DNA of 64,000 bases. It comes from Polyangiales bacterium (lineage in GTDB: Bacteria > Myxococcota_A > Polyangia > Polyangiales > Ga0077539). The translations under genes were made by a program, and so were the position numbers. The DNA lies in NCBI GenBank assembly GCA_046351535.1, contig JAXLYG010000005.1, forward strand, positions 101,334 through 165,333, given 5' to 3'. The notes beneath the pieces were generated by a model. That model searched no databases. It was not told the DNA's origin and saw nothing but the letters and a program-made list of their open reading frames with translations. This document shows, piece by piece, positions 1,632 through 63,376 of the stretch (position 1 is its first letter; every line of letters starts with the position of its first letter).

Positions 1632-1706
<75 letters not shown>

Positions 1707-9964: not shown

Positions 9965-12529
<2,565 letters not shown>

Positions 12530-12598: not shown

Positions 12599-13687
12599 TC
12601 AAGGGGCCGGGGTGACCTTCCCGTCGCTCACGTCGAAGCGCCTGGCGCGGGGGAGGAGGGCCGCGATGCCCGGGTCGGTGGTGGTCACCCACACCTGCGC
12701 GCCGAGCTTCGAGACCAGCTCGAAGAGCCGCTCGATGCGCTCGCGATCGAGCTCGCTCGACACGTCGTCGAGGAGGAGCGCGGGGGTGCTCTTCGTCCTG
12801 CTCTCGATGACGTGAAGCTCCGCGAGGCGCAGGGCCAGGGCGAGGGCGCGGGTCTGCCCCTGCGAGGCCACCACCCTGGCCGGTCGCGCGCCCCAGGTGA
12901 GCGTGAGGTCGTCGGCGTGGGGGCCGAAGAGGGTGGTGCGGCGCGCGAGGTCGTTCTGCACGCCGCCCGCGAGCATCGAGGCGTACGCGACCTGATCGCC
13001 GGGGGCCTTCGCGCGGTACGCCACGGAGATGATCTCGGGCGTGCGGGTGAGCGTGCCGAGGCTCTCCTGCGCGGCGTGGACGAGGTCGCCGACGACGGAC
13101 TCGCGGGCCCGCACCACGGCGCTCCCGTAGCGCGCGAGGGGGAAGTCGTAGGCCTGCACGGCGCGGAGGTTGGGGTGGCGCTCTCGCAGCAGCGCGTTGC
13201 GCGACCGCAGGGCCTTCGCGTAGCTCTTGAGGGCCTCGCCGTACCCATCCACCACGCGCACGAGGATGCGGTCGAGGAGCCTCCGTCGGATGTCGGGCGC
13301 GCCGAGCACGAGGTCGAGGTCGCCGGGCTGAAACACCACGCACGACGCTCCGCCGAAGTACTCGACCGCGCGCTCGGGGCGCTTTCCGTCGAGGAGGATC
13401 TCGCGGGCCGTGCGCGTGAGCTTGATGCGGTACTCGTGGGCGAGGGCCACGGACTCGACGCGCAGGAGAATCTGCGCGGCCTCGGCCTCGTGGCCCACGA
13501 GCTGCGCCCGCGTCGCGCCGCGGAACGACCGCAGCGAGGCCGCGTAGTCGATCGCCTCGAGGATCGACGTCTTGCCCTGACCGTTGGCGCCGAGGAGCAC
13601 GTTGGCGCGCGCGTCGGGGATGACACGCGCGCCCTGGAGGTTTCGAAAGCCTCCAGCGAAGAGCTCGGTGATTCGTACGGGGGTCAC
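12599..13687 (-). CDS. recF: DNA replication and repair protein RecF
   Basis: 362 aa with Walker A (LLGANGQGKTSILEAI) and the typical RecF signature. It sits between dnaN and gyrB. Confidence 0.9.
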   Translation of the reverse strand: MTPVRITELFAGGFRNLQGARVIPDARANVLLGANGQGKTSILEAIDYAASLRSFRGATRAQLVGHEAEAAQILLRVESVALAHEYRIKLTRTAREILLDGKRPERAVEYFGGASCVVFQPGDLDLVLGAPDIRRRLLDRILVRVVDGYGEALKSYAKALRSRNALLRERHPNLRAVQAYDFPLARYGSAVVRARESVVGDLVHAAQESLGTLTRTPEIISVAYRAKAPGDQVAYASMLAGGVQNDLARRTTLFGPHADDLTLTWGARPARVVASQGQTRALALALRLAELHVIESRTKSTPALLLDDVSSELDRERIERLFELVSKLGAQVWVTTTDPGIAALLPRARRFDVSDGKVTPAP

Positions 13688-13721: not shown

Positions 13722-14861
13722 TCAGATGCGCATGGGCATGATGACGCCGATGAAGTCGTTGCGTCCGACGGGGCGCACGACGCCGGGGTCGAGCTCGCCC
13801 GAGAGGTCGAGGGCGACGTCGTCGGTGACGAGCGCGTTGAGCACGTCGATGAGGTACTTGCTGTTGAAGCCGATGGTCACGTCGGGGCCCGTGAGCTCGG
13901 CGTCGAGCTCATCTTGTCCAGCGCCCACGTCGGGGTTCTCGCTCGACAGGATGGCCTTCGAACCGCTCATCGCGAGCTTCACGCCGCTGGTGCGGTCGGC
14001 GGCGACGAGCGACACGGCGCGGAGGGCGTCGAGGAAGGCGAGGCGGTTGATGCGCGCGCCGCGGTCGGTGCCCGTGGGGATGACCTGCTCGTACGAGGGG
14101 AAGGCCGCGTCGACGAGCTTGGAGCTGAGGGTCATCCCTTCGCGCTGAAAGAACACGGGGCCCTGCGAGCTGGCGGCGCCGACGGAGAGGGTGGCGGGTC
14201 CGGCCTCCTTGCGCTCGGCCTTGTCGGCGCGGACCTCGTCGACCATGCGCTTGACCTCGTGGATGCTCTTGGCGGGGATGAGGAGCTTGGAGGCCCCGCG
14301 CATCCCGGGGACGGTGCGCTCGGCCTTGGAGAGCCTGTGGCCGTCGGTGGTGACCATGCGCAGCGTCTCGCCCTGCATCTCGAAGAGGGCGGCGGCGAGG
14401 TGGGGCCGCGTGTCGTCGGTCGACATCGAGAACGAGGTGAGCGAGATGAGGTCGGCCAGGTCGTCGACGGGGATGGCCGTGAGGGGCGTCTTCCCGGGGT
14501 CGGGCATGGTGGGGAAGTCTTCGCCGGGCATCCCCGTGAGGTCGAAGCGGCGCTTGCCGGCCTTGAGCCTCGCGGTGAAGTTCTTCTCGACCGTGACGGT
14601 GATGTCTCCGTCGGGGAGGGCGCGCACCGTGTCGAAGACGTGCCGCGCGTGGAGGGCCACGGAGCCGGGCTTCTTCACCTCCGCGCGCATGGTGCCCGTC
14701 ACCGAGAGCAGCAGGTCGGTCGCTGCGAGGCGCACGCTCCCGCTCGCGTCGGCGGCGATCAGCACGTTGGCCAGGATCGGCATGGCGGACTTCTTGTCGG
14801 CCACGCTCTGCACTCGGCTGAGACCCTTCACGAAGTCCCGCTTGTTGACCACGAACTCCAT
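13722..14861 (-). CDS. dnaN: DNA polymerase III subunit beta (sliding clamp)
   Basis: 379 aa with a three-domain clamp pattern (MEFVVNKRDFVKGLSRVQSVADKK...ILANVLI). Located downstream of dnaA. Confidence 0.9.
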   Translation of the reverse strand: MEFVVNKRDFVKGLSRVQSVADKKSAMPILANVLIAADASGSVRLAATDLLLSVTGTMRAEVKKPGSVALHARHVFDTVRALPDGDITVTVEKNFTARLKAGKRRFDLTGMPGEDFPTMPDPGKTPLTAIPVDDLADLISLTSFSMSTDDTRPHLAAALFEMQGETLRMVTTDGHRLSKAERTVPGMRGASKLLIPAKSIHEVKRMVDEVRADKAERKEAGPATLSVGAASSQGPVFFQREGMTLSSKLVDAAFPSYEQVIPTGTDRGARINRLAFLDALRAVSLVAADRTSGVKLAMSGSKAILSSENPDVGAGQDELDAELTGPDVTIGFNSKYLIDVLNALVTDDVALDLSGELDPGVVRPVGRNDFIGVIMPMRI

Positions 14862-14904
14862 CTCGTCACGCTCCTGCGCTGAGGCTCTCAGGGGGTTGTT
14901 CCCT

Positions 14905-15148
14905 GCTCTTCTACTCTGTTGATAGGAGAAATGAATTTAGAAACAGTACACCGTACATAGATCCTGTGGAGACGGGGGGAAGCGTTGTAAGTACCCGTAA
15001 CTCCATCGGATTCGAAGTGGACAGCGGGAGGGACTCCAGGTGTGGACATCCTGCGGAGGGTCGGGAAGCCGGTTCGTCCACAGGGCCATCCACAGGGGAT
15101 GTCCCAGGGGGAGTTCACGGTGCCTTCCACAGGGTGATCCACAGGCGA
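14905..15148. promoter_or_regulatory. oriC candidate: AT-rich DUE-like stretch plus a DnaA-box cluster in the dnaA-dnaN intergenic region
   Basis: AT-rich stretch 14905-14960 (ttctactctgttgataggagaaatgaatttagaaacagtacaccgtacataga). At least six DnaA-box-like 9-mers with core TCCACAGG: 14961-14970 (minus), 15039-15050 (minus), TTCGTCCACAGG 15072-15083, CCATCCACAGG 15086-15096, CCTTCCACAGG 15122-15132 and GTGATCCACAGG 15133-15144. Confidence 0.6.
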
Positions 15149-15153
15149 GGGTC

Positions 15154-16761
15154 TCACGCTTCGCTGTCCGAGTGTTCAGTGTTCGGGTGCACCGTCGGAG
15201 GCTGGAACCCGAGCTTCACCGAGAGCGACTCGACGGTGCTCCGCAGCTCCGCGTCGTCGGGGAGGAGCTTCTCGATCCTTCGCACGGCGGACATCACGGT
15301 GGTGTGGTCCTTTCCGCCGAACTTCGCGCCGATCTGGGGGAACGACGTGCCGAGGTGGACGCGCGCGAGGAACATCGCGACCTGGCGCGCGATGGCGACC
15401 TCGCGGTGCCGGTCCTTGCCCGTGAGCTCCGACTGCTTGATGCGGTAGTGCTCGCAGACGGCGCGCTGCACGTCGTCGACGGTCACCACGGCGGGCCTCG
15501 CCCCGATGCGCAGGGTGTCCCTCACCATCGCCGTGTCGATGGAGGGGCGGCCCGAGATGTTGGCCTTGATGGCCAGCTTCATGAGCATGCCTTCGAGCTC
15601 GCGGACGCTGGTGTTCGCGGCGCCTGCGATGGCGAAGGCGGCGTCGTCGTCGAGGCGGACGTTCTCCTGCTCGGCCTTCTTCCGCAGGATCGCGACGCGG
15701 GTCTCGACCTCGGGGGTGTAGACCTCGGCGACGAGGCCCGAGCCGAAGCGCGACACGAGGCGCTCGGCCATGCCCTGGAGCTTCTGCGGGAGCACGTCGC
15801 TCGTGAGCACGATGGCGGCCTCGCGCTGGTAGAGCGCGTTGAACGTGTGGAAGAACTCCTCCTGCGTGCCCTCCTTCCCCGCGAGGAACTGCACGTCGTC
15901 GATGAGGAGCGCGTCGCACTGGTTGCGGTAGCGCGCGCGGAACTCGTCCATCTTCCGCTGCTGGATGGCCGCCACGTACTCGTTGGTGAAGGTCTCGGCG
16001 GAGACGTACACGATCCGCGCGTCGGGCTTCTGCTCGAGGATCTTGTGCCCCACGGCGTTGGAGAGGTGCGTCTTGCCGAGGCCCGTTCCGCCGCAGAGGA
16101 AGAGCACGTTGACCCGTCGGCCCGAGAGGTTCGAGAGGGCGAGGGCCATCGCGTGCGCGACCTGATTCGAAGGCCCGATCACGAACTGGTCGAAGGTGTA
16201 CTTGGGCGACAGGCCCGCGGAGAACGATCCCACCGCCGCACCCACGGAGGCTCCCACGGGGGCGGTGGCCGTGCGGGCCGCGGAGGGCTGTGAGGGCGCG
16301 TTGCGCGGGGCCACGGGGCGCTGCGACGGCTGCTGCGGGATCTGCGCGCTCTGGGTCTGCTGCGGCGGGTTCGGGAGCGTCGGCGCGACGATGCGTCCGA
16401 CGGGCTTCGGCGGAGACTTCGGCGCGGGCGAGAGCTTCGGCAGCGCGGCCATCGACACGACGCTCGCGGCCCAGTGCAGAGACCAGGGCTCGCCCGTCAC
16501 GATGCGGAGCTGCTCCTCGATGGCCGCGGTGTAGGCCTTCGAGACCCACTCGCGCGAGAAGTCGTTCGCGGCGCGGAGGAGGAGCACGCCCCCCGCGGCG
16601 TCGAGGGCCTCGATCGGTCGCAGGAGCTTGTCGATCATCTGCGCGCCGACCTTGCCCGAGAGGGAGGCGATCACCTTCTGCCAGAGCTCGTTCGCGTCGG
16701 GGTTCACGGGGGAAGATCTTTCGTCGCGTCGGCGCCCTTCCACAGGGTTATCCACAGGCAT
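15154..16761 (-). CDS. dnaA: chromosomal replication initiator protein DnaA
   Basis: 535 aa. N-terminus ELWQKVIASLSGKV, a Pro/Gln-rich linker, AAA+ Walker A (LFLCGGTGLGKTHL), sensor and box VII motifs, and C-terminal DNA-binding domain IV (KDRHREVAIARQVAMFLAR...GGKDHTTVMSA). Confidence 0.95.
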   Translation of the reverse strand: MPVDNPVEGRRRDERSSPVNPDANELWQKVIASLSGKVGAQMIDKLLRPIEALDAAGGVLLLRAANDFSREWVSKAYTAAIEEQLRIVTGEPWSLHWAASVVSMAALPKLSPAPKSPPKPVGRIVAPTLPNPPQQTQSAQIPQQPSQRPVAPRNAPSQPSAARTATAPVGASVGAAVGSFSAGLSPKYTFDQFVIGPSNQVAHAMALALSNLSGRRVNVLFLCGGTGLGKTHLSNAVGHKILEQKPDARIVYVSAETFTNEYVAAIQQRKMDEFRARYRNQCDALLIDDVQFLAGKEGTQEEFFHTFNALYQREAAIVLTSDVLPQKLQGMAERLVSRFGSGLVAEVYTPEVETRVAILRKKAEQENVRLDDDAAFAIAGAANTSVRELEGMLMKLAIKANISGRPSIDTAMVRDTLRIGARPAVVTVDDVQRAVCEHYRIKQSELTGKDRHREVAIARQVAMFLARVHLGTSFPQIGAKFGGKDHTTVMSAVRRIEKLLPDDAELRSTVESLSVKLGFQPPTVHPNTEHSDSEA

Positions 16762-17032
16762 GGGCGCACCGGTAGCGGTGCTGACTTTCGCCGGATCAGC
16801 TGCGTTTCGCGAGAAATCGACGAAGTTCGATCGGCGCCTCTGGAGCTCGCGCGGAGAAAATTGTCCACAGCCCCTCGCGCCCCGTGTTTGATCGGGCCGA
16901 CGGAGGGTGAAGGGGGCGGCGCGCGGGGGCGACTGGCGGGTGGGGCGGAGGTGACCGAACGGGGTTTTCCACAGCCCTGTGGATTCGCTGCCAGGAAATA
17001 GACGGCGGTCTCGCTGCCGTTATATGTCCACC
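16741..17032. promoter_or_regulatory. dnaA promoter/autoregulatory region with DnaA boxes
   Basis: GTTATCCACAGG overlaps the dnaA start (16748-16759). TTGTCCACAG at 16861-16870. Convergent pair TTTTCCACAG (16965-16974) and CTGTGGATTC (16978-16987). ATGTCCACC at 17024-17032. Confidence 0.55.
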
Positions 17033-17036
17033 CGCG

Positions 17037-17933
17037 ATGAACGCCCGACGCACGATCTCTACGTCCCTCGTGACGCTGGCCGCGACGATGACCCTGTCTT
17101 CGGCCGCGTACGCGCAGGTCGCGGGCGCGCCCGAGACGCCCACCACCACGCGCATGATGGCCCTCGGCGGCAACGCGCAGGCCGCGGCGCAGAGCACGTC
17201 GGGCGTGTTCTCGAACCCCGCGGCGATGAGCCTCGGGCGCGTCTATCACGTCGACTCGTCGATCCTGTTCGACCCGACGGTGAACCGCTGGGCCTTCGGC
17301 GGCACGGTGGCCGACACCACGCGCATGGTCAGCGCGTCGCTCTCGTACAACTACTCGCTGCTCGACGGGAGCGAGTCGCGGCACAACCACGACGTGCGCC
17401 TCGGGCTCTCGGTGCTGCTCACCGAGGGCGTCGCGCTCGGCGTGACCACCCGCTACATGAACTACGACGGCACGCAGACGACCAACACGCGGCTCGGCAC
17501 GGCGTACAGCGGGCTCACCGTCGACGTGGGCGCGGTGGTGCGTCCGGCGAGCTTCCTCACGCTGGCGGTGACGGGCTACTCGCTCACGAACCCCGACACG
17601 TCGCTCACGCCCATCTCCGTGGGTGGCGGCGTGGCGATCACGCCCGTCGACATCCTCAGCGTCATCGTCGACAACGTGTGGGACCTGCGCTCGTTCTCGG
17701 AGCCGCGCATGCGCCTCAACGGCGGCGTGGAGCTCATGCTCGGGCACATCCCCGTGCGCGCGGGCTACCTCTTCGACGACACGCGGCTCAACGGCCCGGT
17801 GCACACGGTCACGGGCGGACTCGGGTACCTCGACACGGCCTTCGGCGTCGAGGCGGCCATCCGTCAGGACGTGGCGGGGTCGAGCCAGACCACCCTGATG
17901 CTCAACATCCGGTACTTCTACCGAAGCATGTAG
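17037..17933 (+). CDS. outer-membrane beta-barrel protein (hypothetical)
   Basis: Signal peptide ending AAYAQ. Alternating amphipathic beta-strand pattern, Gly/Thr/Ser/Tyr-rich. The C-terminus ends ...LNIRYFYRSM, an aromatic OMP-like terminal strand. Confidence 0.5.
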   Translation: MNARRTISTSLVTLAATMTLSSAAYAQVAGAPETPTTTRMMALGGNAQAAAQSTSGVFSNPAAMSLGRVYHVDSSILFDPTVNRWAFGGTVADTTRMVSASLSYNYSLLDGSESRHNHDVRLGLSVLLTEGVALGVTTRYMNYDGTQTTNTRLGTAYSGLTVDVGAVVRPASFLTLAVTGYSLTNPDTSLTPISVGGGVAITPVDILSVIVDNVWDLRSFSEPRMRLNGGVELMLGHIPVRAGYLFDDTRLNGPVHTVTGGLGYLDTAFGVEAAIRQDVAGSSQTTLMLNIRYFYRSM

Positions 17934-18027
17934 CCGAGGGAACCACTCGACACCGCGAACGGTCTCGGCGTATGTGCCAGAGCGTGGTGCAAACGGCGGT
18001 GAGGTCCGCGACGAGGGACTGGTTGCC

Positions 18028-18630
18028 ATGAACCTCGACCTCGAGGCCGAGCGCAAGCTCGTCGAGCGGCTCAAGAAGCGCGACGAGGCCGCGTTCAACA
18101 CCTTCGTGCGGCTCTACCAGGACAAGGTCTTCTCGCTCGTCAACCGCATGCTGAACAACCGCGCCGAGGCCGAGGACCTCGCGCAAGAGGTGTTCATCAC
18201 GGTGTTCAAATCGATCGACCAGTTTCGCGGCGACGCGAGGCTCGGGACGTGGCTCTACCGCGTCGCGGTGAACCACACGAAGAACCGCGTGAAGTACCTC
18301 GACCGCCGCTCGCGCAAGGGCCACGGCGACATCGACAACGCGCCCGAGGCCGAGGTCGCCAAAGGGGGCCCCGTCACCTCGCGCGTCGATCGACCCGACG
18401 AGCGCACCGAGGGCGGCGAGCTCGAGGTGAAGATCCGCGTGGCGCTGGCCTCCCTCGACGCGGACCACAGGGAGCTCATCGTGTTGCGCGACCTCGAGGG
18501 GCTCTCGTACGAAGAGATCGTAGGGATCACGGGCCTGCCCGACGGGACCGTGAAGAGCAGGCTCCACCGCGCGCGCGCCGCGCTGCGTGAGGCCATCGAG
18601 AAAGGGTTGGGATGGAAGCTCCCGGAATGA
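18028..18630 (+). CDS. ECF-family RNA polymerase sigma factor (sigma-24/RpoE-like)
   Basis: Region 2 (DLAQEVFITVFKSIDQFRGDARLGTWLYRVAVNHTKN) and region 4 (DADHRELIVLRDLEGLSYEEIVGITGLPDGTVKSRLHRARAALR). Start taken at ATG 18028 (MNLDLEAER). Confidence 0.8.
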   Translation: MNLDLEAERKLVERLKKRDEAAFNTFVRLYQDKVFSLVNRMLNNRAEAEDLAQEVFITVFKSIDQFRGDARLGTWLYRVAVNHTKNRVKYLDRRSRKGHGDIDNAPEAEVAKGGPVTSRVDRPDERTEGGELEVKIRVALASLDADHRELIVLRDLEGLSYEEIVGITGLPDGTVKSRLHRARAALREAIEKGLGWKLPE

Positions 18631-19058
18631 CCGACGACGAGGCGCGCGACCTGTTCTCGGCCTACCACGACCGCGAGCTGTCGCCCGAGGAGCACGAGCG
18701 CGTGCGCGCCGCGCTCGAGGCGTCGCCCGCGCTCACCAAGGAGTACGAGGCGTTCTGCGAGCTCATGAAGGGGCTCTCGAACATCGCCGTGCCGCAGGAG
18801 CCCGAGTCAGCGCCCGCCCACACCGCGCGCGCCGAGGCGCCAAAGGTGGACCTCCTCGCGGGCGTGCAGAGCCGTCTGCACAAGCGCTCGGCGGGCAAGT
18901 TCTACAAGGACCGATGGTCGCGCGTGGCGGGGATCTTTCCGATCGAGATCCTCGCGGTGCTGGTGCTCGTGGGGCTGGTGATGGCGTACTACGCGATGAC
19001 CTCGATCACGATCGAGCCCGCGCCCGATCACACGGCGCCGACGGCGCCTTCGCGGTAG
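18612..19058 (+). CDS. anti-sigma factor (single-pass membrane protein) cognate to the upstream ECF sigma
   Basis: It overlaps the sigma gene by 19 nt. N-terminal anti-sigma-like helix region (ARDLFSAYHDRELSPEEHERVRAALE...FCELMKGL) followed by one TM helix (IFPIEILAVLVLVGLVMAYYA). Confidence 0.6.
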   Translation: MEAPGMTDDEARDLFSAYHDRELSPEEHERVRAALEASPALTKEYEAFCELMKGLSNIAVPQEPESAPAHTARAEAPKVDLLAGVQSRLHKRSAGKFYKDRWSRVAGIFPIEILAVLVLVGLVMAYYAMTSITIEPAPDHTAPTAPSR

Positions 19059-25029: not shown

Positions 25030-25142
25030 CCCCGCGCCGAGGCCCTCGAAGGCCTCGCCCACTCCCACGCGCGCACGAAGTTGACGGAAGCGCGGCGGTG
25101 TCGTCTGGCACCCTGCTCCGCGCACGAACAGCGTCATTTTTC

Positions 25143-25205
25143 ATGCGTAAAATCCGCATGCCGTCTCAGAAAAACCCGTTCTGAACACATCTATCTAGAG
25201 AGATG
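25143..25205. promoter_or_regulatory. AT-rich leader with two palindromes upstream of the DUF4280 gene
   Basis: ATGCGtaaaatCCGCAT at 25143-25159 and CATCTatctagagAGATG at 25188-25205, in an unusually AT-rich ~80-bp stretch for this genome. A GAGGAGGA ribosome-binding site lies 5 nt upstream of ATG 25314. Confidence 0.35.
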
Positions 25206-25313
25206 TCGCGCACGCGAGCGTGGGATCACGCCCGGCGATCGTTCGGTCATCTCCCGATCTCGACGCGGCGTCGCCCGCGGACGGGAGCGCGTTCCCTCAC
25301 GAGGAGGAGCACG

Positions 25314-25730
25314 ATGAGAAGACTGGTACTTCATGGCGCCACGCTCGGATGCACGCACGGCTCGTCGACAGCGTTCCTGTCGATCGCCCCGGGCCGCCGC
25401 GCGGGCGCTCTCGTTGCCACCGTGCGCGACCACGCGTCGCTCATGAACATCGCCCCCTTCGGCTTGTGCAGCTCGCTTTCGAACCCCCGCGTCGCGGCCG
25501 CCACCGCCGCGTCGCGCGGCGATCTCACGCCGCAGTTCTGCGTCCCCCACACGCCAGGCCCCTGGACGCAGTCCGATCCCGCGACCGAGGTCGACGGCGT
25601 CGAGGCGCTCCACGAGGGCGCGACGTGTCGTTGCGCGTGGGGCGGGCGCATCAGCGTGAAGTCGTCCGAGGTCTCCGCGAGCGACGAGCGATCGAGCGCG
25701 AGCGATGATCGTTCGAACGCGAGCTTGTAG
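25314..25730 (+). CDS. DUF4280 (PAAR-like) domain protein, standalone, with a Ser/Asp-rich C-terminal tail
   Basis: LVLHGATLGCTHGSS...MNIAPFGLCSSLSNPRVAAATAASRGDLTPQFCVPHTPGPWTQ...CRCAWGGRISV fits the DUF4280 pattern (NI.PFG.C.S..NP.VAAATAA...LTP..C.P.T..W...C.W.G.I). Strong ribosome-binding site. Tail KSSEVSASDERSSASDDRSNASL. Confidence 0.65.
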   Translation: MRRLVLHGATLGCTHGSSTAFLSIAPGRRAGALVATVRDHASLMNIAPFGLCSSLSNPRVAAATAASRGDLTPQFCVPHTPGPWTQSDPATEVDGVEALHEGATCRCAWGGRISVKSSEVSASDERSSASDDRSNASL

Positions 25731-25740
25731 CGCCGCACGC

Positions 25741-28833: not shown

Positions 28834-28907
28834 GGAGGTGCGGATGGGATTTGAACCCACGTATCACGGTTTTGCAAACCGTTGCCTGGCCACTTGGCTA
28901 CCGCACC
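28834..28907 (-). tRNA. tRNA-Cys (anticodon GCA)
   Basis: Reverse complement is GGTGCGGTAGCCAAGTGGCCAGGCAACGGTTTGCAAAACCGTGATACGTGGGTTCAAATCCCATCCGCACCT. Anticodon stem-loop ACGGT-TTGCAAA-ACCGT, T-loop TTCAAAT, CC encoded. Confidence 0.85.
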
Positions 28908-31010: not shown

Positions 31011-31721
31011 TCACCGCGTGTAGGTCACCGTGGCCGAGGCGCTCGCGAGCGTGATCGCGCGGATCGCGTCGGTGAGCACCGCGCCGGTCACATCCCTCGC
31101 GCGCGTGGGGAGCGTCGGGTGCGCCGAGAGCGCATACACCGTGTACGTGTACATCATCGCGCCGGGGCCCTGAGAGCACGGCGGCGAGTAGGCCAGCGCC
31201 GGTCCGTCGCTCGTGATGCCCGCGACGCCGACGCCCGTCGAGCCCACCGCGAGCGCGCGCGTCGCGCCGGGGATGCTGTGAAGCACCCAGTTCCACTTGA
31301 GGCCGTCGCGCGCGAGGGTGGTCATCATCACGGCGAACTCGGTGGTTCCCGCGGGGACGCCCGACCACGCGAGCGGAGGGCTGTGCCCCACGCCGTCGCA
31401 GGTGTACTCGGCGGGGAGCGTCCCGTGATCGACGAAGGCGCTGCTCGTGAGCGTGAACGCGCCCGTTGAAGCATCCGCGGGAGAAGCATCCGCGGACAGA
31501 GCATCACTCGCGGTCGCGTCACTCGCAGTCACGTCGCTCGCGGTCGCGTCGTTCGCGGTCGCGTCACTCGCGGTCGCGTCGCTCGCGGTCACGTCGCTCG
31601 CGGTCACGTCGCTCGCAGTCACATCCGTGATGCTCGCGTCTTGCGGCGTCGCGGCGTCGGGCGCGTCGCTCGAAGAGCACGCAGCCAGCAGCGCGCAGAG
31701 CGGGAGAGCGAGGTACTTCAC
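31011..31721 (-). CDS. YbhB/YbcL (PEBP-family) lipoprotein with an N-terminal TASDV tandem-repeat linker
   Basis: Lipobox LLAACSS. About 10 copies of T-A-S-D-V/A. PEBP core (FVDHGTLPAEYTCDGVGHSPPLAWSGVPAGTTEFAVMMTTLARDGLKWNWVLHSIP). Confidence 0.7.
   Translation of the reverse strand: MKYLALPLCALLAACSSSDAPDAATPQDASITDVTASDVTASDVTASDATASDATANDATASDVTASDATASDALSADASPADASTGAFTLTSSAFVDHGTLPAEYTCDGVGHSPPLAWSGVPAGTTEFAVMMTTLARDGLKWNWVLHSIPGATRALAVGSTGVGVAGITSDGPALAYSPPCSQGPGAMMYTYTVYALSAHPTLPTRARDVTGAVLTDAIRAITLASASATVTYTR
31470..31640. repeat. 15-nt tandem repeat (about 10 units of gtcacgtcgctcgcg) encoding a TASDV linker
   Basis: Direct tandem repeats are visible in the sequence between 31470 and 31640. 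Confidence 0.7.
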
Positions 31722-36543: not shown

Positions 36544-38241
36544 ATGGCAGAGCGCAGGGGCTTCATCGCAGCGGAGCGCGGTCGGATCGCGGCGGTCTTC
36601 GCGATCACGGCGCAGCTCGCGGGCGTCGCGTGCACGACGACACCGGCCGCAGACGCGGGGGTCGACGCCCCCGTCACGCCCATCGACGTGACGAGCGACA
36701 CGGCCCCGCCCGACGCCGCGACGGACGCTCCCCTCGACGCCTCGGAGATGGACGCGGTGACGGACGCGGTGACGGACGCGGTGACGGACGCTCCCACGAT
36801 GGACGCCGGGCGCGACGGGGGGATGCGGCGCGACGGCGGCGCGAGCGACGCGTCGGGCGACGTGACGATCACGATGTCCGTCGACGTGTTCACCGACGAC
36901 GCGTTCACGGGCCCCGAGCTGCTCGCGCGGCCCACCGACCGCTCGATCGCGGTGCACGTCGTCCCCACGCGCGCCGTCGAGATCTACTACGAGTACGGCG
37001 CGTCGCCGGGGGTCTACAGCGGGCGCACCGAGACGCAGTCGGTCGCCGCGCGCACGCCCGCGCTGACGGTGCTCTCGCCCCTCACGGCGAACACCCGGTA
37101 CTACTACCGCCTGCGGTACCGGGCGCCCGGCGAGGCGACCTTCGCGTCGCGCGAGGAGCACTCGTTCTTCACGCAGCGCGCGCGAGGTTCGACCTTCACC
37201 TTCACCGTGCAGGCCGACTCGCACCTCGACGACCGCTCGGACTACTCGGTCTACGCGAGCACGCTCACCAACGTGCTGCGCGACAGGCCCGACTTTCACG
37301 TCGACCTCGGCGACACGTTCATGTGCGAGAAGCACACGACGCCCTTCATGGCCGAGACCCTCGCGGCCATGGACGCCCCCACCGTCGACGCCCGCTACGC
37401 CTTCGACCGCGCCAACTTCGCGCGCATCGGCCACTCGGTGCCCGTCTTCCTCGTGAACGGAAACCACGAGGGAGAGTCGGGCTGGTTCCTCGACGGGACG
37501 GCCAACAACATCGCGGTGTGGGCGACGCTCTCGCGCAAGCGGTACTTCGCCAACCCCGAGGCCGACGCGTTCTACTCGTCGACCACCGACGCGGAGCCCA
37601 TCGTCGGCACGCGCCAGGCGTTCTACGCCTTCGAGTGGGGCGACGCGCTCTTCATCACCCTCGACCCGTACTGGTACACCCGCGCGCGTCCCACCGCGGA
37701 TCGCTGGCGCTGGACCCTGGGTGAAGCGCAGTACCAGTGGCTCCGTCGCGTGCTCGCGGGGAGCACCGCGACGCACAAGTTCGTCTTTCTGCACCACCTG
37801 CTCGGCGGCGTGAACGCCGAGGCCCGCGGCGGCGTCGAGGCTGCTCCCTTCTACGAGTGGGGCGGGCTCAACGAAGACCGCACGCAGGGCTTCGCCGCGC
37901 ACCGCCCGGGGTGGCCCGCGCCCATCCATCAGCTCCTCCGCGACGCGCACGTCACCGCTGTTTTTCACGGCCACGACCACGTCTACGTGCGCCAGGAGCT
38001 CGACGGGATCGTCTATCAGGAGGTCCCCCAGCCGAGCGCGTCGAACTTCACCAACGGCGCCACGATCGCCGCCGAGGGCGGCTACGACAGCGGCGTCGTG
38101 ATGAGCAGCAGCGGCCACCTGCGCGTGGTCGTGTCTCCGTCGAGCGTCGTCGTCGACTACGTGCGCGCGACGCCTCCCGCGGGCATGCGCATCCCCGACG
38201 GCGGCGTCGGCGGCTACTCGTACACCCTCGTCCCTCGCTGA
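36544..38241 (+). CDS. purple-acid-phosphatase-like calcineurin-type metallophosphoesterase lipoprotein
   Basis: Lipobox LAGVAC, AVTD repeats, N-terminal FN3-like domain, then the GDTF ... GNHE ... GHDH metallophosphatase motif set. Confidence 0.7.
   Translation: MAERRGFIAAERGRIAAVFAITAQLAGVACTTTPAADAGVDAPVTPIDVTSDTAPPDAATDAPLDASEMDAVTDAVTDAVTDAPTMDAGRDGGMRRDGGASDASGDVTITMSVDVFTDDAFTGPELLARPTDRSIAVHVVPTRAVEIYYEYGASPGVYSGRTETQSVAARTPALTVLSPLTANTRYYYRLRYRAPGEATFASREEHSFFTQRARGSTFTFTVQADSHLDDRSDYSVYASTLTNVLRDRPDFHVDLGDTFMCEKHTTPFMAETLAAMDAPTVDARYAFDRANFARIGHSVPVFLVNGNHEGESGWFLDGTANNIAVWATLSRKRYFANPEADAFYSSTTDAEPIVGTRQAFYAFEWGDALFITLDPYWYTRARPTADRWRWTLGEAQYQWLRRVLAGSTATHKFVFLHHLLGGVNAEARGGVEAAPFYEWGGLNEDRTQGFAAHRPGWPAPIHQLLRDAHVTAVFHGHDHVYVRQELDGIVYQEVPQPSASNFTNGATIAAEGGYDSGVVMSSSGHLRVVVSPSSVVVDYVRATPPAGMRIPDGGVGGYSYTLVPR
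36750..36795. repeat. three or four 15-nt units (gacgcggtgacggac) encoding DAVTD in the metallophosphoesterase gene
   Basis: Direct repeats are visible in the sequence. Confidence 0.6.
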
Positions 38242-38266: not shown

Positions 38267-39775
38267 ATGACCGACCCTTCGAAGAGCCCCGTGTCTCGCC
38301 TCGCGCTCCTCGTCATCACCCTCGCGGGCTGCGGAAACTCAATCGCAGAGCCCTCGCCCGACGCGAGCGCGCAGGTCGACGTGCGACCCGCGAGCGACGT
38401 CCTTCCCTCGTCCGATGTCACCGCCTCCGATGTCACGGTCACCGACGTCACCGTCACCGACGTCACGGTCACCGACGCGCCGTCCTCCGACGCGCCCTCG
38501 ACGGGACGTCATCCCAACTTCATCGTCTTCCTCGCCGAGGCCAACGGGTGGACGAGCACCTCGGTGCTCCAGGACGAGGCGATTCCCGCGTCGCGCAGCG
38601 GCACGATCCAGACGCCGAGCCTCGACCGCATCACCGCACAGGGGATGCGCTTCTCGAACTTCTACGCCCCGTCGCCGCGGTGCATGCCGACGCGCGCGAG
38701 CCTCATCAGTGGGATCTCGCCCGCCGCGCTGCACATGACCTTCATCCCCGAGGCGCGCAACGACGGCGCGGCGACGGGCAACGTGGTCACGCCCACGACC
38801 ATCACCACGCTCCCTGTCGAGACGCCGACGGTGGCGTCGCTCCTCCGCGCGGCGGGGTACGGCACGGCGCACTTCGGCAAGTGGCACGCGGGCAACATTC
38901 ACCCGTCGATGTACGGCTTCGACATGAGCGACGGGCCGACGGCCAACCGTGGACCCGACAACGTCGACCACCCCAACCCCGCGCAGGCGTACGCGATCGC
39001 CGACAGGGCCATCGCGTTCCTCAACACGCAGGCCGCGGCGCGGCGACCGTTCTACCTCCAGGTGTCGAGCTACGGCGGCAAGGACGAGGTCGACTCGCGG
39101 CCCGAGACCTACGCGATGGCCGCCGCGAGGCTCCCCGGCGCGAACCCGCGCGACATCGCGCTCGCCGCCGTGCAGATGGAGATGGACATCAACATCGGCC
39201 GCGTCCTCACGCGCCTCGACGAGCTGGGGCTCACGGGCGACACGTACGTGTTCTTCACGTCGGATCACGGCGCGCAGGGCCCCTCGTCGAACCCGCCGCT
39301 CCAGGGCAGCAAAGGGACGGTCTGGGAGGGCGGCATCCGCGTTCCCCTCTTCGTGCGCGGACCCAACGTGCGCATGGGGGTCTCATCGCGCGTGCGCACC
39401 ACGGGGGTCGACCTGCTCCCGACGATCATGTCGCTCGCGAACGTCACCGCGCTCCCTGCCCGTCTCGAAGGCGGCAACCTCGCGCCGCTTCTCCTCGGAA
39501 CCGTCAACGAGGTGCGCCGTTCGCGCGACGAGCTCGTCGTCCACTTTCCCCACTACGACATGGACCCGCTCGGCCCCGCGTCGACGATCCTCTTCGGCGA
39601 CTACAAGCTCACGCGCTACTACGAGACCGGCTCGCAGCGGCTCTACAACGTCGTGACCGACTTCGCCGAAGCGACGGACCTCGCCCCGCGCGACCCGGCT
39701 CGTGTGACCGACATGGCCCGCCGCCTCGACGAGTACCTCGCCGCGGTCAACGCCCAGATCCCCACGCGTCGCTGA
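38267..39775 (+). CDS. arylsulfatase-family (Cys-type, FGE-dependent) lipoprotein
   Basis: Lipobox LAGCG. VTVTD repeats. Sulfatase signature SPRCMPTRASLISG (C-x-P-x-R) and a second motif GKWH. Confidence 0.8.
   Translation: MTDPSKSPVSRLALLVITLAGCGNSIAEPSPDASAQVDVRPASDVLPSSDVTASDVTVTDVTVTDVTVTDAPSSDAPSTGRHPNFIVFLAEANGWTSTSVLQDEAIPASRSGTIQTPSLDRITAQGMRFSNFYAPSPRCMPTRASLISGISPAALHMTFIPEARNDGAATGNVVTPTTITTLPVETPTVASLLRAAGYGTAHFGKWHAGNIHPSMYGFDMSDGPTANRGPDNVDHPNPAQAYAIADRAIAFLNTQAAARRPFYLQVSSYGGKDEVDSRPETYAMAAARLPGANPRDIALAAVQMEMDINIGRVLTRLDELGLTGDTYVFFTSDHGAQGPSSNPPLQGSKGTVWEGGIRVPLFVRGPNVRMGVSSRVRTTGVDLLPTIMSLANVTALPARLEGGNLAPLLLGTVNEVRRSRDELVVHFPHYDMDPLGPASTILFGDYKLTRYYETGSQRLYNVVTDFAEATDLAPRDPARVTDMARRLDEYLAAVNAQIPTRR
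38411..38480. repeat. tandem repeats encoding VT(A/V)(S/T)D units in the sulfatase gene
   Basis: gtcaccgacgtcacggtcaccgacgtcaccgtcaccgac. Confidence 0.6.
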
Positions 39776-59438: not shown

Positions 59439-60348
59439 ATGCGAACCCGTCTGACCCTCGCGCTCACGCTCGCGCTCGCCGCGTGCGATGACGCCACCAC
59501 CGCGCCTCCGGTGACCGCCGACGCGGCGCCCGACGTCACCGCCGACGCGGTGAGCGACGTCGCCCGCGACACCTCCGTCGACGACGCCCTCGCCGACCTC
59601 GTGACCCCCGTCGATCGCAGCGCACCCGACGTGCGCGACGTGACCGTGGCCGACGTCACCCCGCGCGATGTCACCGCGAGCGACGTGACCGCCAGCGATG
59701 TGACCGCCAGCGACGTCACCGCGACGGATGTCACCGCGACGGACGTCACCGCGCGTGACGTGTCCGCGACGGATGTCATGGCGACCGACGCGCCCGTCGC
59801 GGTCGGTCCGTACCCCGCGGGGCCCTATGGAAACCGCGAGGGAGACATCCTCGCGAACCTCTCGTGGGAGGGCTACCAGAACCTCGACGGACGCGCGGTC
59901 TCGACCACGCTCCCCTACGGCCCGATGACGCTCCAGACGGTGCGCGAGACGGGGCGCCACTACGCCCTCGTGCACCTCTCGGAGTTCTATTGACCCGGCT
60001 GTCAGCACGCGGCCCGTGATCTGGCCGTGCAAGGACCGATGGTGCTCGCTGCGGGCGGTGCGGTGGTCGAGATCCTCGAGTCGACGGCGCTGTCCTTCAC
60101 GCCGCGCGCGAACCTCGACGCGTGGATCAACACGTACCGCCTCCCGGTGACGGCCGTGATCGACCCCCCCCGCCGAGCGCGTGACCCGCACGCTGATGAC
60201 CTACGGGATCCGCGAGAGCCTCTTCGTCGTCGACCTGCGCACCATGCAGATCGTCAACAAGTTCAACGGCTCCGTGGCGGGCGTCGGCGACTCGTCGATC
60301 ACCATGGGCATCGCGCGCGTGCTCGAACTCCTCCGCAGCGGGATGTGA
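59439..60348 (+). CDS. thioredoxin-fold (TlpA/redoxin-like) lipoprotein; in-frame TGA at the catalytic Cys position (candidate selenocysteine, Y-U-P-G-C) plus a C8 homopolymer frameshift; alternatively a pseudogene
   Basis: ATG 59439 with lipobox LALAAC, and DVTASDV repeats. ...ALVHLSEFY-[TGA 59991-59993]-PGCQHAARDL... continues in the same frame. After the C8 run at 60164-60171, a +1 shift gives ...VIDPPAERVTRTLMTYGIRESLFVVDLRTMQIVNKFNGSV..., which is the redoxin C-terminal ygv.g.PttflID..G.I pattern. Stop at 60346-60348. Confidence 0.45.
59630..59790. repeat. 15-nt tandem repeats encoding a DVTA(S/T) linker
   Basis: gacgtgaccgccagc-type units repeated about 9 times. Confidence 0.6.
60008..60029 (+). 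other. hairpin 15 nt downstream of the in-frame TGA (SECIS-like candidate)
   Basis: CGCGGCC-cgtgatct-GGCCGTG: a 7-bp stem with one G.U pair and an 8-nt loop containing GU. Confidence 0.25.
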
Positions 60349-61198: not shown

Positions 61199-63376
61199 CT
61201 ACTCCGCGCGCACCTGAGAGGGCCGCAGGTGCGGCCCGAAGACGCCGTCGCCGTAGCTCTGCCCCGGCGCGCCGCCCCAGCACCACACGGTGCCGTCTTC
61301 GCGCAGCGCGCAGGTGAGCGATCCGCTCGCGACGACCTTCGTGACGTGGTCGAGGCCGGGCACCTCCGCGGGCTCCGTGCGCGATCGCGTGGCGCCGTCG
61401 TCGCCGAGCTGTCCGTCGCCGTTGTCGCCCCAGCAGCGCACGGTGCCGTTCTCCATGCGCGCGCAGGAGTGCGTGTCTCCCACGGCCACCTCGACGGCGC
61501 CGCGCGCGCCGGTCACCTCGACGGGCGTCGCGCGCTCGGAGAACACGCCCGTGCCGAGCTGACCCGCGCGGCCGCGTCCCCAGCATCGCACCGCGCCGCC
61601 GCGCTCGACCGCGCACGCGTGCCCTGCGCTCACGGCGAGCGAGATCACCGCGCCGAGGTCGTCGCGCGCGATCGGACGCGGCTGTACAGCGCGCGCGCTG
61701 CGAGAGATGAGACCCCACTCGAGGTCGCGCCCCCAGCACCGCGGCGGGGCGCCGTCGGAGAGCGCGCAGATCGCGTGCTCGAAGGTCTGGACGCGGGTCA
61801 CGCCCGTGAGGCCCGCGATGCGGGTGAAGGTCAGCGGCGTCGTGATCTGGGTGCCCCGAGAGGTGTCGCACGCGACGGTGCCGTCACGCATCGAGACGCA
61901 GAGGGCCGACCTCCCTCCCGCGATCGAGACGCCGGGAGATGGGAGCGTCGGCGTGTCGAACTCCTCGCGCGGCGGAGGCGCCTCCGGCGGCTCCTCGAGG
62001 TCACCGGACTCTTCGGGGGGATCGGGGTAGAGCGCGCGCGCGCACCGCAGCGCGCCTTCGTGGGAGAGGGCGCAGCACGACAAGCCGCGCGACGCGATGC
62101 CGGCGGCGTCGCCGAGCCCCACGCGGGGTCGAGGGAGCGCGCTCGCGGTCACGCCGATGTCGAAGAGGGCGTTGAGGTTCGACCTGCTGTTCCAGCACCG
62201 CGCGGGGCCGCGTTCGAAGGTGGCGCAGAGGCCGTCCTCCGTGCTGACGAGGTCGCGAACGCCCGTGAGCGCGGCGCCGCCCGCGGGAACCATTCGCCAG
62301 CGCGGCGCGCGCGCTGCGAGCTGGCCGTGCTGGTTGTCGCCCCAGCAGCGAAGCTCGGTGCCTTCGAGCACCGCGCACACGAAGTTCCCGCCGACCGCGA
62401 GCAGGCGCACGGGGGGGAGACCCGTCACGGGCTGCCTCTCGGCGGTGTCAGAAGTGGAGCCCCGGACGCCCGTTCCGTCGAGGTCTTCGGCGTTGCCCCA
62501 GAGGGTCACGCGGTCGCGCGTCGCGACGGCCCAGGCCTGATCGCCCTGCGAGAGCGCGACCACGTCCGTGAACGACTCGGGCGTGCGCGGGAGGTCTGAG
62601 GGCGTCGGCAACGCGAGCCGTTCGGCGCGGTCACCGCGCAGCGCGAAGATGTGCCACAGGCCCCCGACGAGTTCCCGCACCGCGCCCGGCTCGTAGGGAA
62701 AGCTCTGCGGCCCCCGCGGCGTCACGCAACGCACGGGACCCGACCGCGTCACCGCGCAGGTCGCGGCGCCCGACGCGGCCACGCGCGTCGCGTCGTCGAG
62801 GTGCGCGGGTCGCGGCGCGTCGCGCGCGAAGCCCCCGGCCGCGGCGCGGAGCCACTGGACCACCGCGCCGTCGCGTCGAACGGCGAACACCTCCCTCGGC
62901 GAGATCGCGACGTCGATCAGGTCGCTCACGGCGCTCGCGGTGAGGGGCGACCGGTCGCAGTCGCTGTCGTCGTCGCGGTTGGTGCCCCACTTCCCCCAGC
63001 AGGAGAGCGAGCCCGAGCGGGTGAGGGCGCACGCGAGGCCGCTCTGCATCGCGATGCGCACGACATCGGTGAGGCCCGGCACCTGCTGCGGCTCGGCGCG
63101 GTCTTCGGCGGGCGCCCCGTCGCCCAGCAGACCCACCTCGTCGCTGCCCCAGCACCACACCGTCGCGTCGCTGCGTAGCGCGCACGCCGACGCGCCGTCC
63201 GCCGCGATGGCCGTGTAGCGCAACGGCCCCGCGGTGGCCTCGACGGGCGCGGTCGCCACGGGCGGGGTCACCACGGGCGCGGCCACCGCGGGCGCGGCCA
63301 CGGGCGGAGGCGTCTGCACCGCGGCGTGACACGCGGTGGCGAGCGCGACGGCGGAGATCGTTCGTAGCCGAATCAT
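61199..63376 (-). CDS. RCC1-repeat (double beta-propeller) protein, exported
   Basis: Start ATG 63376 (MIRLRTISAVALATACHA). Many CWG...GQLG RCC1 blades, for example VRCWGDNGDGQLG. A Pro/Glu-rich linker separates two repeat blocks. Confidence 0.65.
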   Translation of the reverse strand: MIRLRTISAVALATACHAAVQTPPPVAAPAVAAPVVTPPVATAPVEATAGPLRYTAIAADGASACALRSDATVWCWGSDEVGLLGDGAPAEDRAEPQQVPGLTDVVRIAMQSGLACALTRSGSLSCWGKWGTNRDDDSDCDRSPLTASAVSDLIDVAISPREVFAVRRDGAVVQWLRAAAGGFARDAPRPAHLDDATRVAASGAATCAVTRSGPVRCVTPRGPQSFPYEPGAVRELVGGLWHIFALRGDRAERLALPTPSDLPRTPESFTDVVALSQGDQAWAVATRDRVTLWGNAEDLDGTGVRGSTSDTAERQPVTGLPPVRLLAVGGNFVCAVLEGTELRCWGDNQHGQLAARAPRWRMVPAGGAALTGVRDLVSTEDGLCATFERGPARCWNSRSNLNALFDIGVTASALPRPRVGLGDAAGIASRGLSCCALSHEGALRCARALYPDPPEESGDLEEPPEAPPPREEFDTPTLPSPGVSIAGGRSALCVSMRDGTVACDTSRGTQITTPLTFTRIAGLTGVTRVQTFEHAICALSDGAPPRCWGRDLEWGLISRSARAVQPRPIARDDLGAVISLAVSAGHACAVERGGAVRCWGRGRAGQLGTGVFSERATPVEVTGARGAVEVAVGDTHSCARMENGTVRCWGDNGDGQLGDDGATRSRTEPAEVPGLDHVTKVVASGSLTCALREDGTVWCWGGAPGQSYGDGVFGPHLRPSQVRAE

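Follow-up and report, generated by a model that had tools for sequence, protein, structure and literature searches.

Where does the chromosome of a Polyangiales bacterium begin to replicate, and how is the site built? The DNA considered here is a stretch of 64,000 nucleotides from contig JAXLYG010000005.1 (assembly GCA_046351535.1, positions 101,334 to 165,333), which we call the window; its composition, DnaA boxes and repeats were scanned along the full 64 kb (mean GC 71.3%). Within the window the gene dnaA sits between two clusters of DnaA boxes, and the candidate origin lies between dnaA and dnaN, with recF and gyrB following. We propose that this locus is very probably the DnaA-dependent chromosome origin (oriC) of the bacterium, in the ancestral arrangement around dnaA, a proposal that draws on motif, gene context and conservation as read from the sequence. 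A preliminary description of this DNA had already placed an origin here, with the unwinding element between dnaA and dnaN and a further group of boxes ahead of dnaA. That reading is supported by the box enrichment, the AT minimum and the conserved footprint described below, and it also fits the order and orientation, like those of Firmicutes, in which box, DnaA-trios and AT-rich DNA follow each other.

DnaA boxes and candidate unwinding module between dnaA and dnaN

How strongly are DnaA boxes concentrated at this locus? The octamer TCCACAGG occurs nine times in the 64 kb, against 1.18 matches expected from shuffled sequence (largest shuffle, 4), and eight of the nine fall in the two spacers that flank dnaA, at 14963-15145 and 16739-16983. 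The binomial probability of at least eight of nine lying within those 621 bp is 7e-16; chance clustering is ruled out by the shuffles and the binomial test together. The hexamer TCCACA has a density of 17.7 per kb in both spacers and of 0.16 per kb in the rest of the window, and TCCACAG is found ten times in the spacers and once elsewhere. TCCACA is thus enriched about 100-fold and TCCACAG about 1000-fold, in the two spacers only. Counted by their TCCAC core, seven boxes lie in the 292-bp dnaA-dnaN spacer and six in the region of about 330 bp upstream of dnaA (16736-17032), a clustering of the kind that marks an oriC, as does the proximity of dnaA and dnaN. For comparison, eleven dnaA loci with DnaA identities from 98% down to 53% were fetched, and nine further loci were found through DnaN; about 19 related loci, numbered here with the prefix L, share the layout. 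Ten dnaA-dnaN spacers (DnaA identity 98%-60%) were aligned as A1, and nine loci upstream of dnaA as A2. In these relatives boxes number 10-20 per kb in the spacers and 0.1-0.9 per kb in flanking coding DNA, a contrast seen at each locus with a DnaA identity of about 60% or more.

The preliminary description had counted at least six 9-mers in the dnaA-dnaN spacer. The clustering stands and the count does not: the spacer holds five exact copies of TCCACAGG, at 14963 (minus strand), 15077, 15089, 15126 and 15138, together with two further boxes that have a TCCAC core, ATGTCCACA and CTGTCCACT, which read ATGTCCACAcc and CTGTCCACTtc. A module of two boxes at 12-bp pitch, 21-29 nt long and of the form TCCACAgggNNNTCCACA, is present in three copies, the tandem pairs at 15074-15094, 15123-15143 and 16736-16756 (Table 1). 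What sequence does a box have in this clade? Ninety-five boxes with a TCCAC core, taken from nine non-redundant loci, were counted in a matrix, in which position 2 is T in 58%, position 9 is A in 80%, and the following positions +10 and +11 are G in 82% and 55%, respectively; positions 1 and 3 show hardly any preference. The box consensus predicted for the clade from this matrix is nTnTCCACAG(G/C). Given these frequencies, and just 55% G at +11, the variant T(T/C)NTCCACAGG first put forward for this DNA was too strict, and its GG extension stems in part from the CCC linker within the tandem pairs. The DNA-binding signature of DnaA domain IV, GGKDHTTV, is intact in the product of this dnaA, which is consistent with an ordinary TCCACA core.

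The box array is flanked by an AT-rich stretch (14909-14963), a candidate DNA-unwinding element (DUE), which lies directly beside an invariant box. This stretch combines the lowest GC content with the weakest nearest-neighbour duplex energy in the 64 kb at every scanning width from 30 to 100 bp. Its 30-bp core (14919-14948) is 73% AT, and its minus strand carries two ATTTCT repeats about 11 bp apart. An AT-rich element in the spacer had been noted before and is indeed there, although the interval 14905-14960 proved to be 62.5% AT and not, as then estimated, about 70%. AT-rich DNA next to the boxes is a feature both of oriC and of the basal unwinding system (BUS), which is defined as a DnaA box, often tandem, 0-16 bp from at least three DnaA-trios and followed by an AT-rich region (PMC8287927). 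Trios, of consensus 3'-GAT-5', have adenine at their centre; the search rule for them is (.A.){3,}, and the second tandem box (at most 4 mismatches, gap 0-3 bp) is optional, being found in 57% of predicted BUS (PMC8287927). The box beside the AT-rich stretch, GTCTCCACA, which we call the anchor box, has 2 mismatches to TTATCCACA and faces the unwinding region; a BUS box may have at most 2 mismatches and takes this orientation. As TCTCCACAG, the anchor box is invariant in all ten sequences of A1. It points toward the AT-rich stretch and dnaN, as the Firmicutes TTATCCACA box beside the trios does.

How closely do the relatives resemble a BUS? In L087 and L099 the resemblance is plain: the sequence TTTTCCACC-GTCTCCACA-gggctca-CTA CTA CTA CTG TTT leads into the AT-rich stretch, with a trio offset of 7. 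Other relatives likewise carry arrays that the BUS rule accepts, namely TTA CTA CTA in L088, CTC TTC ATC ATC GTC in L089, and ATC ATC ATC in L095. The position that abuts the anchor box is occupied by CGTTCCACC, TTTTCCACC and TTCTCCACC in L085, L087 and L089, respectively, all of them within the limits for a second box. The tail beyond the anchor box reads ATGTACGGTGTACTGTTTCTA in the window and CTACTACTACTGTTT in L087. In the dnaA-dnaN spacers of Bacillales and Clostridia the dnaA sense strand reads TTATCCACA-(T/A)ATCCACA-4 bp-CTA CTA CTA TTA CTA-AT-rich-dnaN, and in the clade the box, spacer, trios, AT-rich stretch and dnaN follow each other in the same order and orientation as in those Firmicutes spacers. 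The unwinding module that these sequences predict would work like a BUS and descend from one; relatives belong to that class in the strict sense. As a separate observation, the locus L100 (VFSW01006121.1) has tandem boxes TTATCCACG-GTGTCCACA upstream of dnaN, and beside them the array CTA CGA CGA CGT with a 3-nt period; this array, which does not have the central adenine/thymine of canonical trios, may be a deviant trio array.

The order of the elements is kept down to about 60% DnaA identity, in the ten spacers of A1 and in nine further metagenome loci. From dnaA to dnaN it runs as follows: the dnaA stop; a tandem pair, CTGTGGAnnACCCTGTGGA; a second tandem pair; one or two opposed boxes (GTCCACA); TTCGAA; GTTnC-N5-CTTAC; a poor box abutting the invariant box GTCTCCACAG; the AT-rich stretch; the purine tract AGAGTAGAAGA; and the dnaN ribosome-binding site. 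Within the tandem pair at 15123-15143, CTGTGGAnnACCCTG is nearly invariant in A1. The non-box motifs TTCGAA and GTTAC-N5-CTTAC, which lie among the boxes at 14987-15016, are kept to about 72% DnaA identity. In the purine tract AGA is invariant and the remainder at least 90% conserved in A1, and the tract is present in L092-L099 too. The anchor box, the AT-rich stretch and the purine tract make up a 69-nt core: between the window and L082 or L084 this core is 99% identical, whereas the four-fold sites of dnaA are just 74-76% identical in the same comparisons, so that the core is under strong purifying selection as DNA. Close relatives differ in one part of the core only, the 9 nt that follow ggatct, which read AGATACTAG in L092, for instance. 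Two side observations concern motifs in this region. The half-sites of GTTAC-N5-CTTAC are direct repeats 10 bp apart and resemble a response-regulator site. Within the AT-rich stretch, TATCAACAGAGTA (14912-14924, minus strand) is one mismatch off the consensus of IHF, WATCAANNNNTTR; its conservation is limited to the subclade of 82% DnaA identity or more.

Might the conserved elements other than boxes be parts of a lineage-specific module for unwinding or control, and not passive spacer? The idea arises because the subclade of the window has lost the canonical trio array yet keeps the 69-nt core almost frozen, and because the purine tract, TTCGAA and GTTAC-N5-CTTAC are invariant in the clade. 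We regard it as rather unlikely; such a module could, for example, engage single-stranded DNA without trios, recognize the second strand, or provide sites for a myxobacterial origin regulator.

Another possibility is that the 69-nt core is a transcribed element (a dnaN leader, a small RNA or a promoter) and no unwinding element. It lies 35-110 nt upstream of the dnaN start, and in the distant taxa L003 and L004 dnaN has as its ribosome-binding site the corresponding run of purines that comes after the AT-rich DNA. In the window, however, dnaN has a separate Shine-Dalgarno sequence, AGGAG (14871-14875), 30 nt beyond the purine tract, and the tract itself is not followed by a start codon; an upstream in-frame dnaN start near the tract was considered and rejected, as there is no start codon from the stop at about 14937 to the ATG at 14861. 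An Rfam scan of the window returned two tRNAs only, with no match in the origin region. The consensus fold of the spacer alignment pairs the opposed boxes only and leaves the core unpaired, with a covariation term of +0.21, and a reading of the spacer as RNA was discarded for want of an Rfam match and of covariation support. Finally, a scan of 14700-17200 for sigma-70 promoters and intrinsic terminators found none. A transcribed core is, in our estimate, extremely unlikely.

How would the parts work together as an origin? From the motifs and their placement we infer DnaA binding, unwinding and origin firing in the following manner. DnaA would bind the TCCACA-type array in the 292-bp spacer, which offers two tandem pairs at 12-bp pitch, two inverted boxes, and the anchor box with its degenerate partner. 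A DnaA oligomer would then grow from the anchor box onto the adjoining strand and open the 55-bp AT-rich stretch at 14909-14963. Helicase would be loaded at the opened DNA, and forks would depart both ways.

Several observations weigh against this proposal. In the window itself the trio array is degenerate and does not exceed chance: the segment, which its closest relatives share, satisfies the BUS rule formally at offset 15 only, with a run of 4 trios, and shuffles reach a run of at least 4 in 13% of cases and of at least 3 in 37%. The partner box CTTCCCCCC has 5 mismatches to TTATCCACA, where a second BUS box may have 4. The cumulative GC skew of the 64-kb window has its minimum near 7-8 kb and shows no switch at 14.9 kb. 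In Minicystis rosea (L001, CP016211, about 9.70 Mb) another open reading frame (ORF), not dnaN, lies downstream of dnaA, and boxes are found only upstream. Likewise, the predicted origin of Sorangium cellulosum is beside dnaN and not dnaA (Ori-Finder, PMC2650636). What do these points imply? The sense strand is C-rich in 28 of the 34 called genes (mean sense-strand skew -0.049), so that the skew tracks the coding strand and says little about the position of the origin; the residual skew (+0.006 to the left, +0.019 to the right) has the expected direction and is negligible, and the coding-strand bias to the left and right of the DUE is weak. No parS site (TGTTNCACGTGNAACA, at most 2 mismatches) was found in the 64-kb window. 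M. rosea and S. cellulosum indicate that linkage to dnaA alone is no proof of an origin in Polyangiales. The upstream-only boxes of M. rosea fit the Ori-Finder placement of the Sorangium origin beside dnaN, and the ancestral dnaA-dnaN linkage is broken in the Minicystis/Sorangium part of the order.

Some of these points would suit a different explanation, in which the boxes solely regulate transcription of dnaA and dnaN, as in the dnaA promoter of E. coli, and the chromosome fires from another origin on the replicon. Under it we could understand that dnaA of M. rosea keeps upstream boxes without an adjacent dnaN, that Ori-Finder put the Sorangium origin away from dnaA (PMC2650636), and that the window skew leaves the locus unmarked. 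It would not account for the seven boxes and the partner box beyond the dnaA stop, which are senseless for control of the dnaA promoter, nor for an invariant box that faces the least stable DNA of the window. Furthermore, the DnaA-trio arrays of the relatives at that junction are a feature of unwinding and not of transcription (PMC8287927), and the scan found no sigma-70-like promoter in the spacer. We consider regulation alone very unlikely and continue to favour a DnaA-dependent origin at this locus.

The box cluster upstream of dnaA

Where does dnaA itself begin? In A2 all nine loci have the GTG at 16707, and it is exactly from this codon that the sequences are conserved as coding DNA. The ATG at 16761, with which the 535-aa gene call P0001 begins, is not conserved across the nine loci, and the indels between the ATG and the GTG are not multiples of three; we ruled it out as the dnaA start on both counts. 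The true start predicted from this alignment is GTG 16707, and the product translated from it is 100% identical to the 517-aa protein MFO0644711.1 of NCBI (P0121), the DnaA of a metagenome-assembled genome of Polyangiales. The dnaA start varies among gene calls, and an upstream ATG, as in P0001, puts two DnaA boxes inside the ORF. The preliminary description had boxes overlap the dnaA start codon. With the start at the GTG they do not: GTTATCCACAGG adjoins the ATG at 16761, and the nearest pair lies 29-49 bp upstream of the GTG.

This tandem pair is 90% identical to the copy at 15123-15151, and its pattern CTGTGGAnAA-C-CT-TGGA is invariant in nine of the nine loci of A2. Autoregulation is recognized by DnaA boxes in the promoter or leader region of dnaA, which is where the pair lies, and we propose that the upstream cluster, through this pair, would most likely let DnaA repress its own promoter. 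Further upstream, the box TTGTCCACA (16861-16869) and the convergent pair TTTTCCACAG / CTGTGGATTC (16965-16986) are present just as the preliminary description had them. The distal boxes are conserved in closer relatives only, L082, L085 and L086 being without them. Between the boxes, at 16806-16851, lie TTCGTCGATTTCTCGCGAA, of which TTTCTCGCG is invariant in the nine loci, and CGCGAGCTCCAG, with the inverted arms CGCGAG / CTCGCG; these motifs may be a promoter or a regulator site.

Does the upstream cluster belong to the origin? A bipartite origin has two box clusters parted by a spacer gene, usually dnaA, and one of the clusters has the DUE (PMC4285127). The layout here is of that form: the clusters at 14965-15143 and 16736-17032 are parted by dnaA, and the DUE is in the first alone. 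The upstream cluster may in addition form the other half of a bipartite origin of the kind known from Bacillus subtilis and Helicobacter pylori, and the close copy of the post-stop pair that it contains would suit DnaA-mediated looping. The alternative is a continuous origin wholly within the dnaA-dnaN spacer, with 16736-17032 serving only the autoregulation of dnaA and the control of the PorV-like gene on its far side. In its favour, the spacer downstream of dnaA contains DUE, anchor box and trios alike; the distance of the upstream pair from the dnaA start is typical of an operator; the restriction of the distal boxes to closer relatives fits as well; and the upstream boxes that M. rosea has with dnaA alone agree with a mainly regulatory role. 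Set against these are the published definition, which two clusters split by dnaA, one with a DUE, satisfy (PMC4285127), and the copied pair. We give the continuous origin nearly, but not quite, an even chance.

Gene context and other features of the window

The features are collected in Table 1. The closest DnaA proteins are those of uncultured Polyangiales and Myxococcota assemblies, and among the matches listed in genome contigs, mostly from distant phyla, the DnaA of M. rosea, a named genome, is only 46% identical. Divergently from dnaA, a PorV-like gene is followed by an ECF sigma / zf-HC2 anti-sigma pair (17037-19058), a conserved divergent neighbour in the clade; the same neighbourhood is found in L081, L084, L088, L090 and L091. 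The usual neighbours of dnaA, rnpA-rpmH, are absent beside dnaA in the window and in these same five loci. Elsewhere in the window, several separate ORFs contain tandem repeats whose period is 15 bp (GACGTCACCGC-like, encoding pentapeptide repeats). The second most AT-rich spot of the window (25127-25206) lies upstream of a small gene (25315-25734), whose counterpart in L081 is annotated DUF4280, a PAAR-like family.

Table 1. Coordinates of genes, DnaA boxes and other elements in the 64-kb window; A1 and A2 are the alignments of the dnaA-dnaN spacer and of the region upstream of dnaA.
Feature	Position	Strand	Remarks
tRNA-Ala(CGC)	1632-1706	-	Rfam scan
gyrB	9965-12499	-	NCBIfam cut-off passed
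recF	12599-13687	-	NCBIfam cut-off passed
dnaN, 379 aa	13722-14861	-	TIGR00663, 245 bits, NCBIfam cut-off passed; model aligned from residue 1
Conserved purine tract AGAGTAGAAGAG	14906-14917	-	dnaN-side edge of AT-rich stretch
AT-rich candidate DUE	14909-14963	.	GC 34.5%; conserved in relatives
Homologous position of relatives' DnaA-trio arrays	14934-14964	-	window: ggatct ATGTACGGT GTA CTG TTT CTA
Anchor DnaA box GTCTCCACA	14965-14973	-	adjoins AT-rich stretch, points into it
Degenerate partner box CTTCCCCCC	14974-14982	-	abuts anchor box, 9-bp pitch
DnaA-box-like CTGTCCACT	15016-15024	-	fused to conserved TTCGAA 15011-15016
DnaA box ATGTCCACA	15041-15049	-	GTCCACA core kept in A1
Tandem box pair TCGTCCACAgggCCATCCACA, 12-bp pitch	15074-15094	+	copy of repeat family D2; TGTGGAnnnnCCTGTGGA conserved in A1
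Tandem box pair CCTTCCACAgggTGATCCACA	15123-15143	+	10 bp past dnaA stop; reference copy of D2
dnaA, 517 aa, GTG start	15154-16707	-	TIGR00362, 467 bits (cut-off 344)
Tandem box pair CCTTCCACAgggTTATCCACA	16736-16756	+	29-49 bp before dnaA GTG; candidate autoregulation site
DnaA box TTGTCCACA	16861-16869	+	widely kept; TGTGGA(C/T)AA in A2
Head-to-head pair TTTTCCACAgccCTGTGGATTC = TTTTCCACAG / CTGTGGATTC	16965-16986	.	kept in L081, L083, L084
Box-like ATGTCCACC	17024-17032	+	4 bp from PorV-like gene start; kept in L081, L083, L084
PorV-like outer-membrane gene	17037-17933	+	divergent from dnaA
tRNA-Cys(GCA)	28834-28907	-	Rfam scan
15-bp-period repeats	31507-31622, 36750-36791, 38412-38492, 59633-59790, 63243-63301		

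Comparison with known origins

The locus belongs to a long-known type of origin and is well conserved in relatives, and the current picture of bacterial initiation is unchanged by it. If it is the origin, replichores and gene dosage in this uncultured lineage of Polyangiales can be reckoned from it as zero point; in this order GC skew is unreliable, and the Sorangium calls have been uncertain. By-products are a dnaA start corrected against some gene calls and a DnaA-box matrix at the level of the clade. Furthermore, the clade forms a natural series, in which some members have a canonical trio array and closely related ones a degenerate one, and could serve to probe how strictly trios are required. 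The sole route to anything new leads through the purine tract, TTCGAA, GTTAC-N5-CTTAC and the TTTCTCGCG element upstream of dnaA.

Which characterized origin does the locus resemble most closely in its parts? In E. coli, DnaA boxes are found in the promoter and leader of dnaA, and oriC is about 42 kb away from dnaA. Compared with that promoter, the locus described here also carries an unwinding module. The oriC of B. subtilis (incA/B - dnaA - incC), which has a BUS, likewise has box clusters on both sides of dnaA and its DUE in the dnaA-dnaN spacer. Origins of this type also share with ours the tandem boxes at 9-bp pitch, the short spacer, the trinucleotide array, the AT-rich stretch and dnaN, in the terms of the published criteria (PMC8287927, PMC6669920). 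Unlike B. subtilis, however, the host is a high-GC Gram-negative myxobacterium, and rpmH and rnpA are not upstream of its dnaA. The boxes are TTATCCACA in the B. subtilis type and nTnTCCACAG(G/C) in this clade; the trio array is degenerate in the subclade of the window, where a good box is proximal to the trios and its partner is poor; and the B. subtilis type has no counterparts of the clade's purine tract, TTCGAA and GTTAC-N5-CTTAC.

Similarly, H. pylori (oriC1 - dnaA - oriC2) is Gram-negative and has an origin split by dnaA, with the DUE downstream of dnaA and trio-like motifs by the box (PMC4285127, PMC8235120). It differs in its boxes, TCATTCACA, and in its AT-rich genome, and the interaction of its sub-origins is experimental, whereas the locus here is known from sequence. 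Streptomyces and Mycobacterium resemble this bacterium in their high GC content, in an origin located in the dnaA-dnaN spacer, and in TTGTCCACA, a box of high affinity (PMC4285127, Table 1). That box occurs here in exact form upstream of dnaA, at 16861-16869, and ATGTCCACA occurs in addition at 15041-15049. The origins of these two genera are continuous, that of Streptomyces measuring as much as about 950 bp and having many more boxes, and they are not known to have a marked AT-rich DUE of this kind. By contrast, the 292-bp spacer here has a sharp AT-rich element of 55 bp.

Finally, S. cellulosum belongs to the same order, Polyangiales, and its origin is predicted directly upstream of dnaN, in a genome with weak or atypical GC skew (PMC2650636). 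The box proposed for it, TTATCCCCC, resembles the partner box CTTCCCCCC. In Sorangium, as in Minicystis, dnaA is apart from dnaN, and three weak boxes have been proposed in Sorangium; the clade described here, in contrast, has the ancestral order dnaA-oriC-dnaN and many clear TCCACA boxes.

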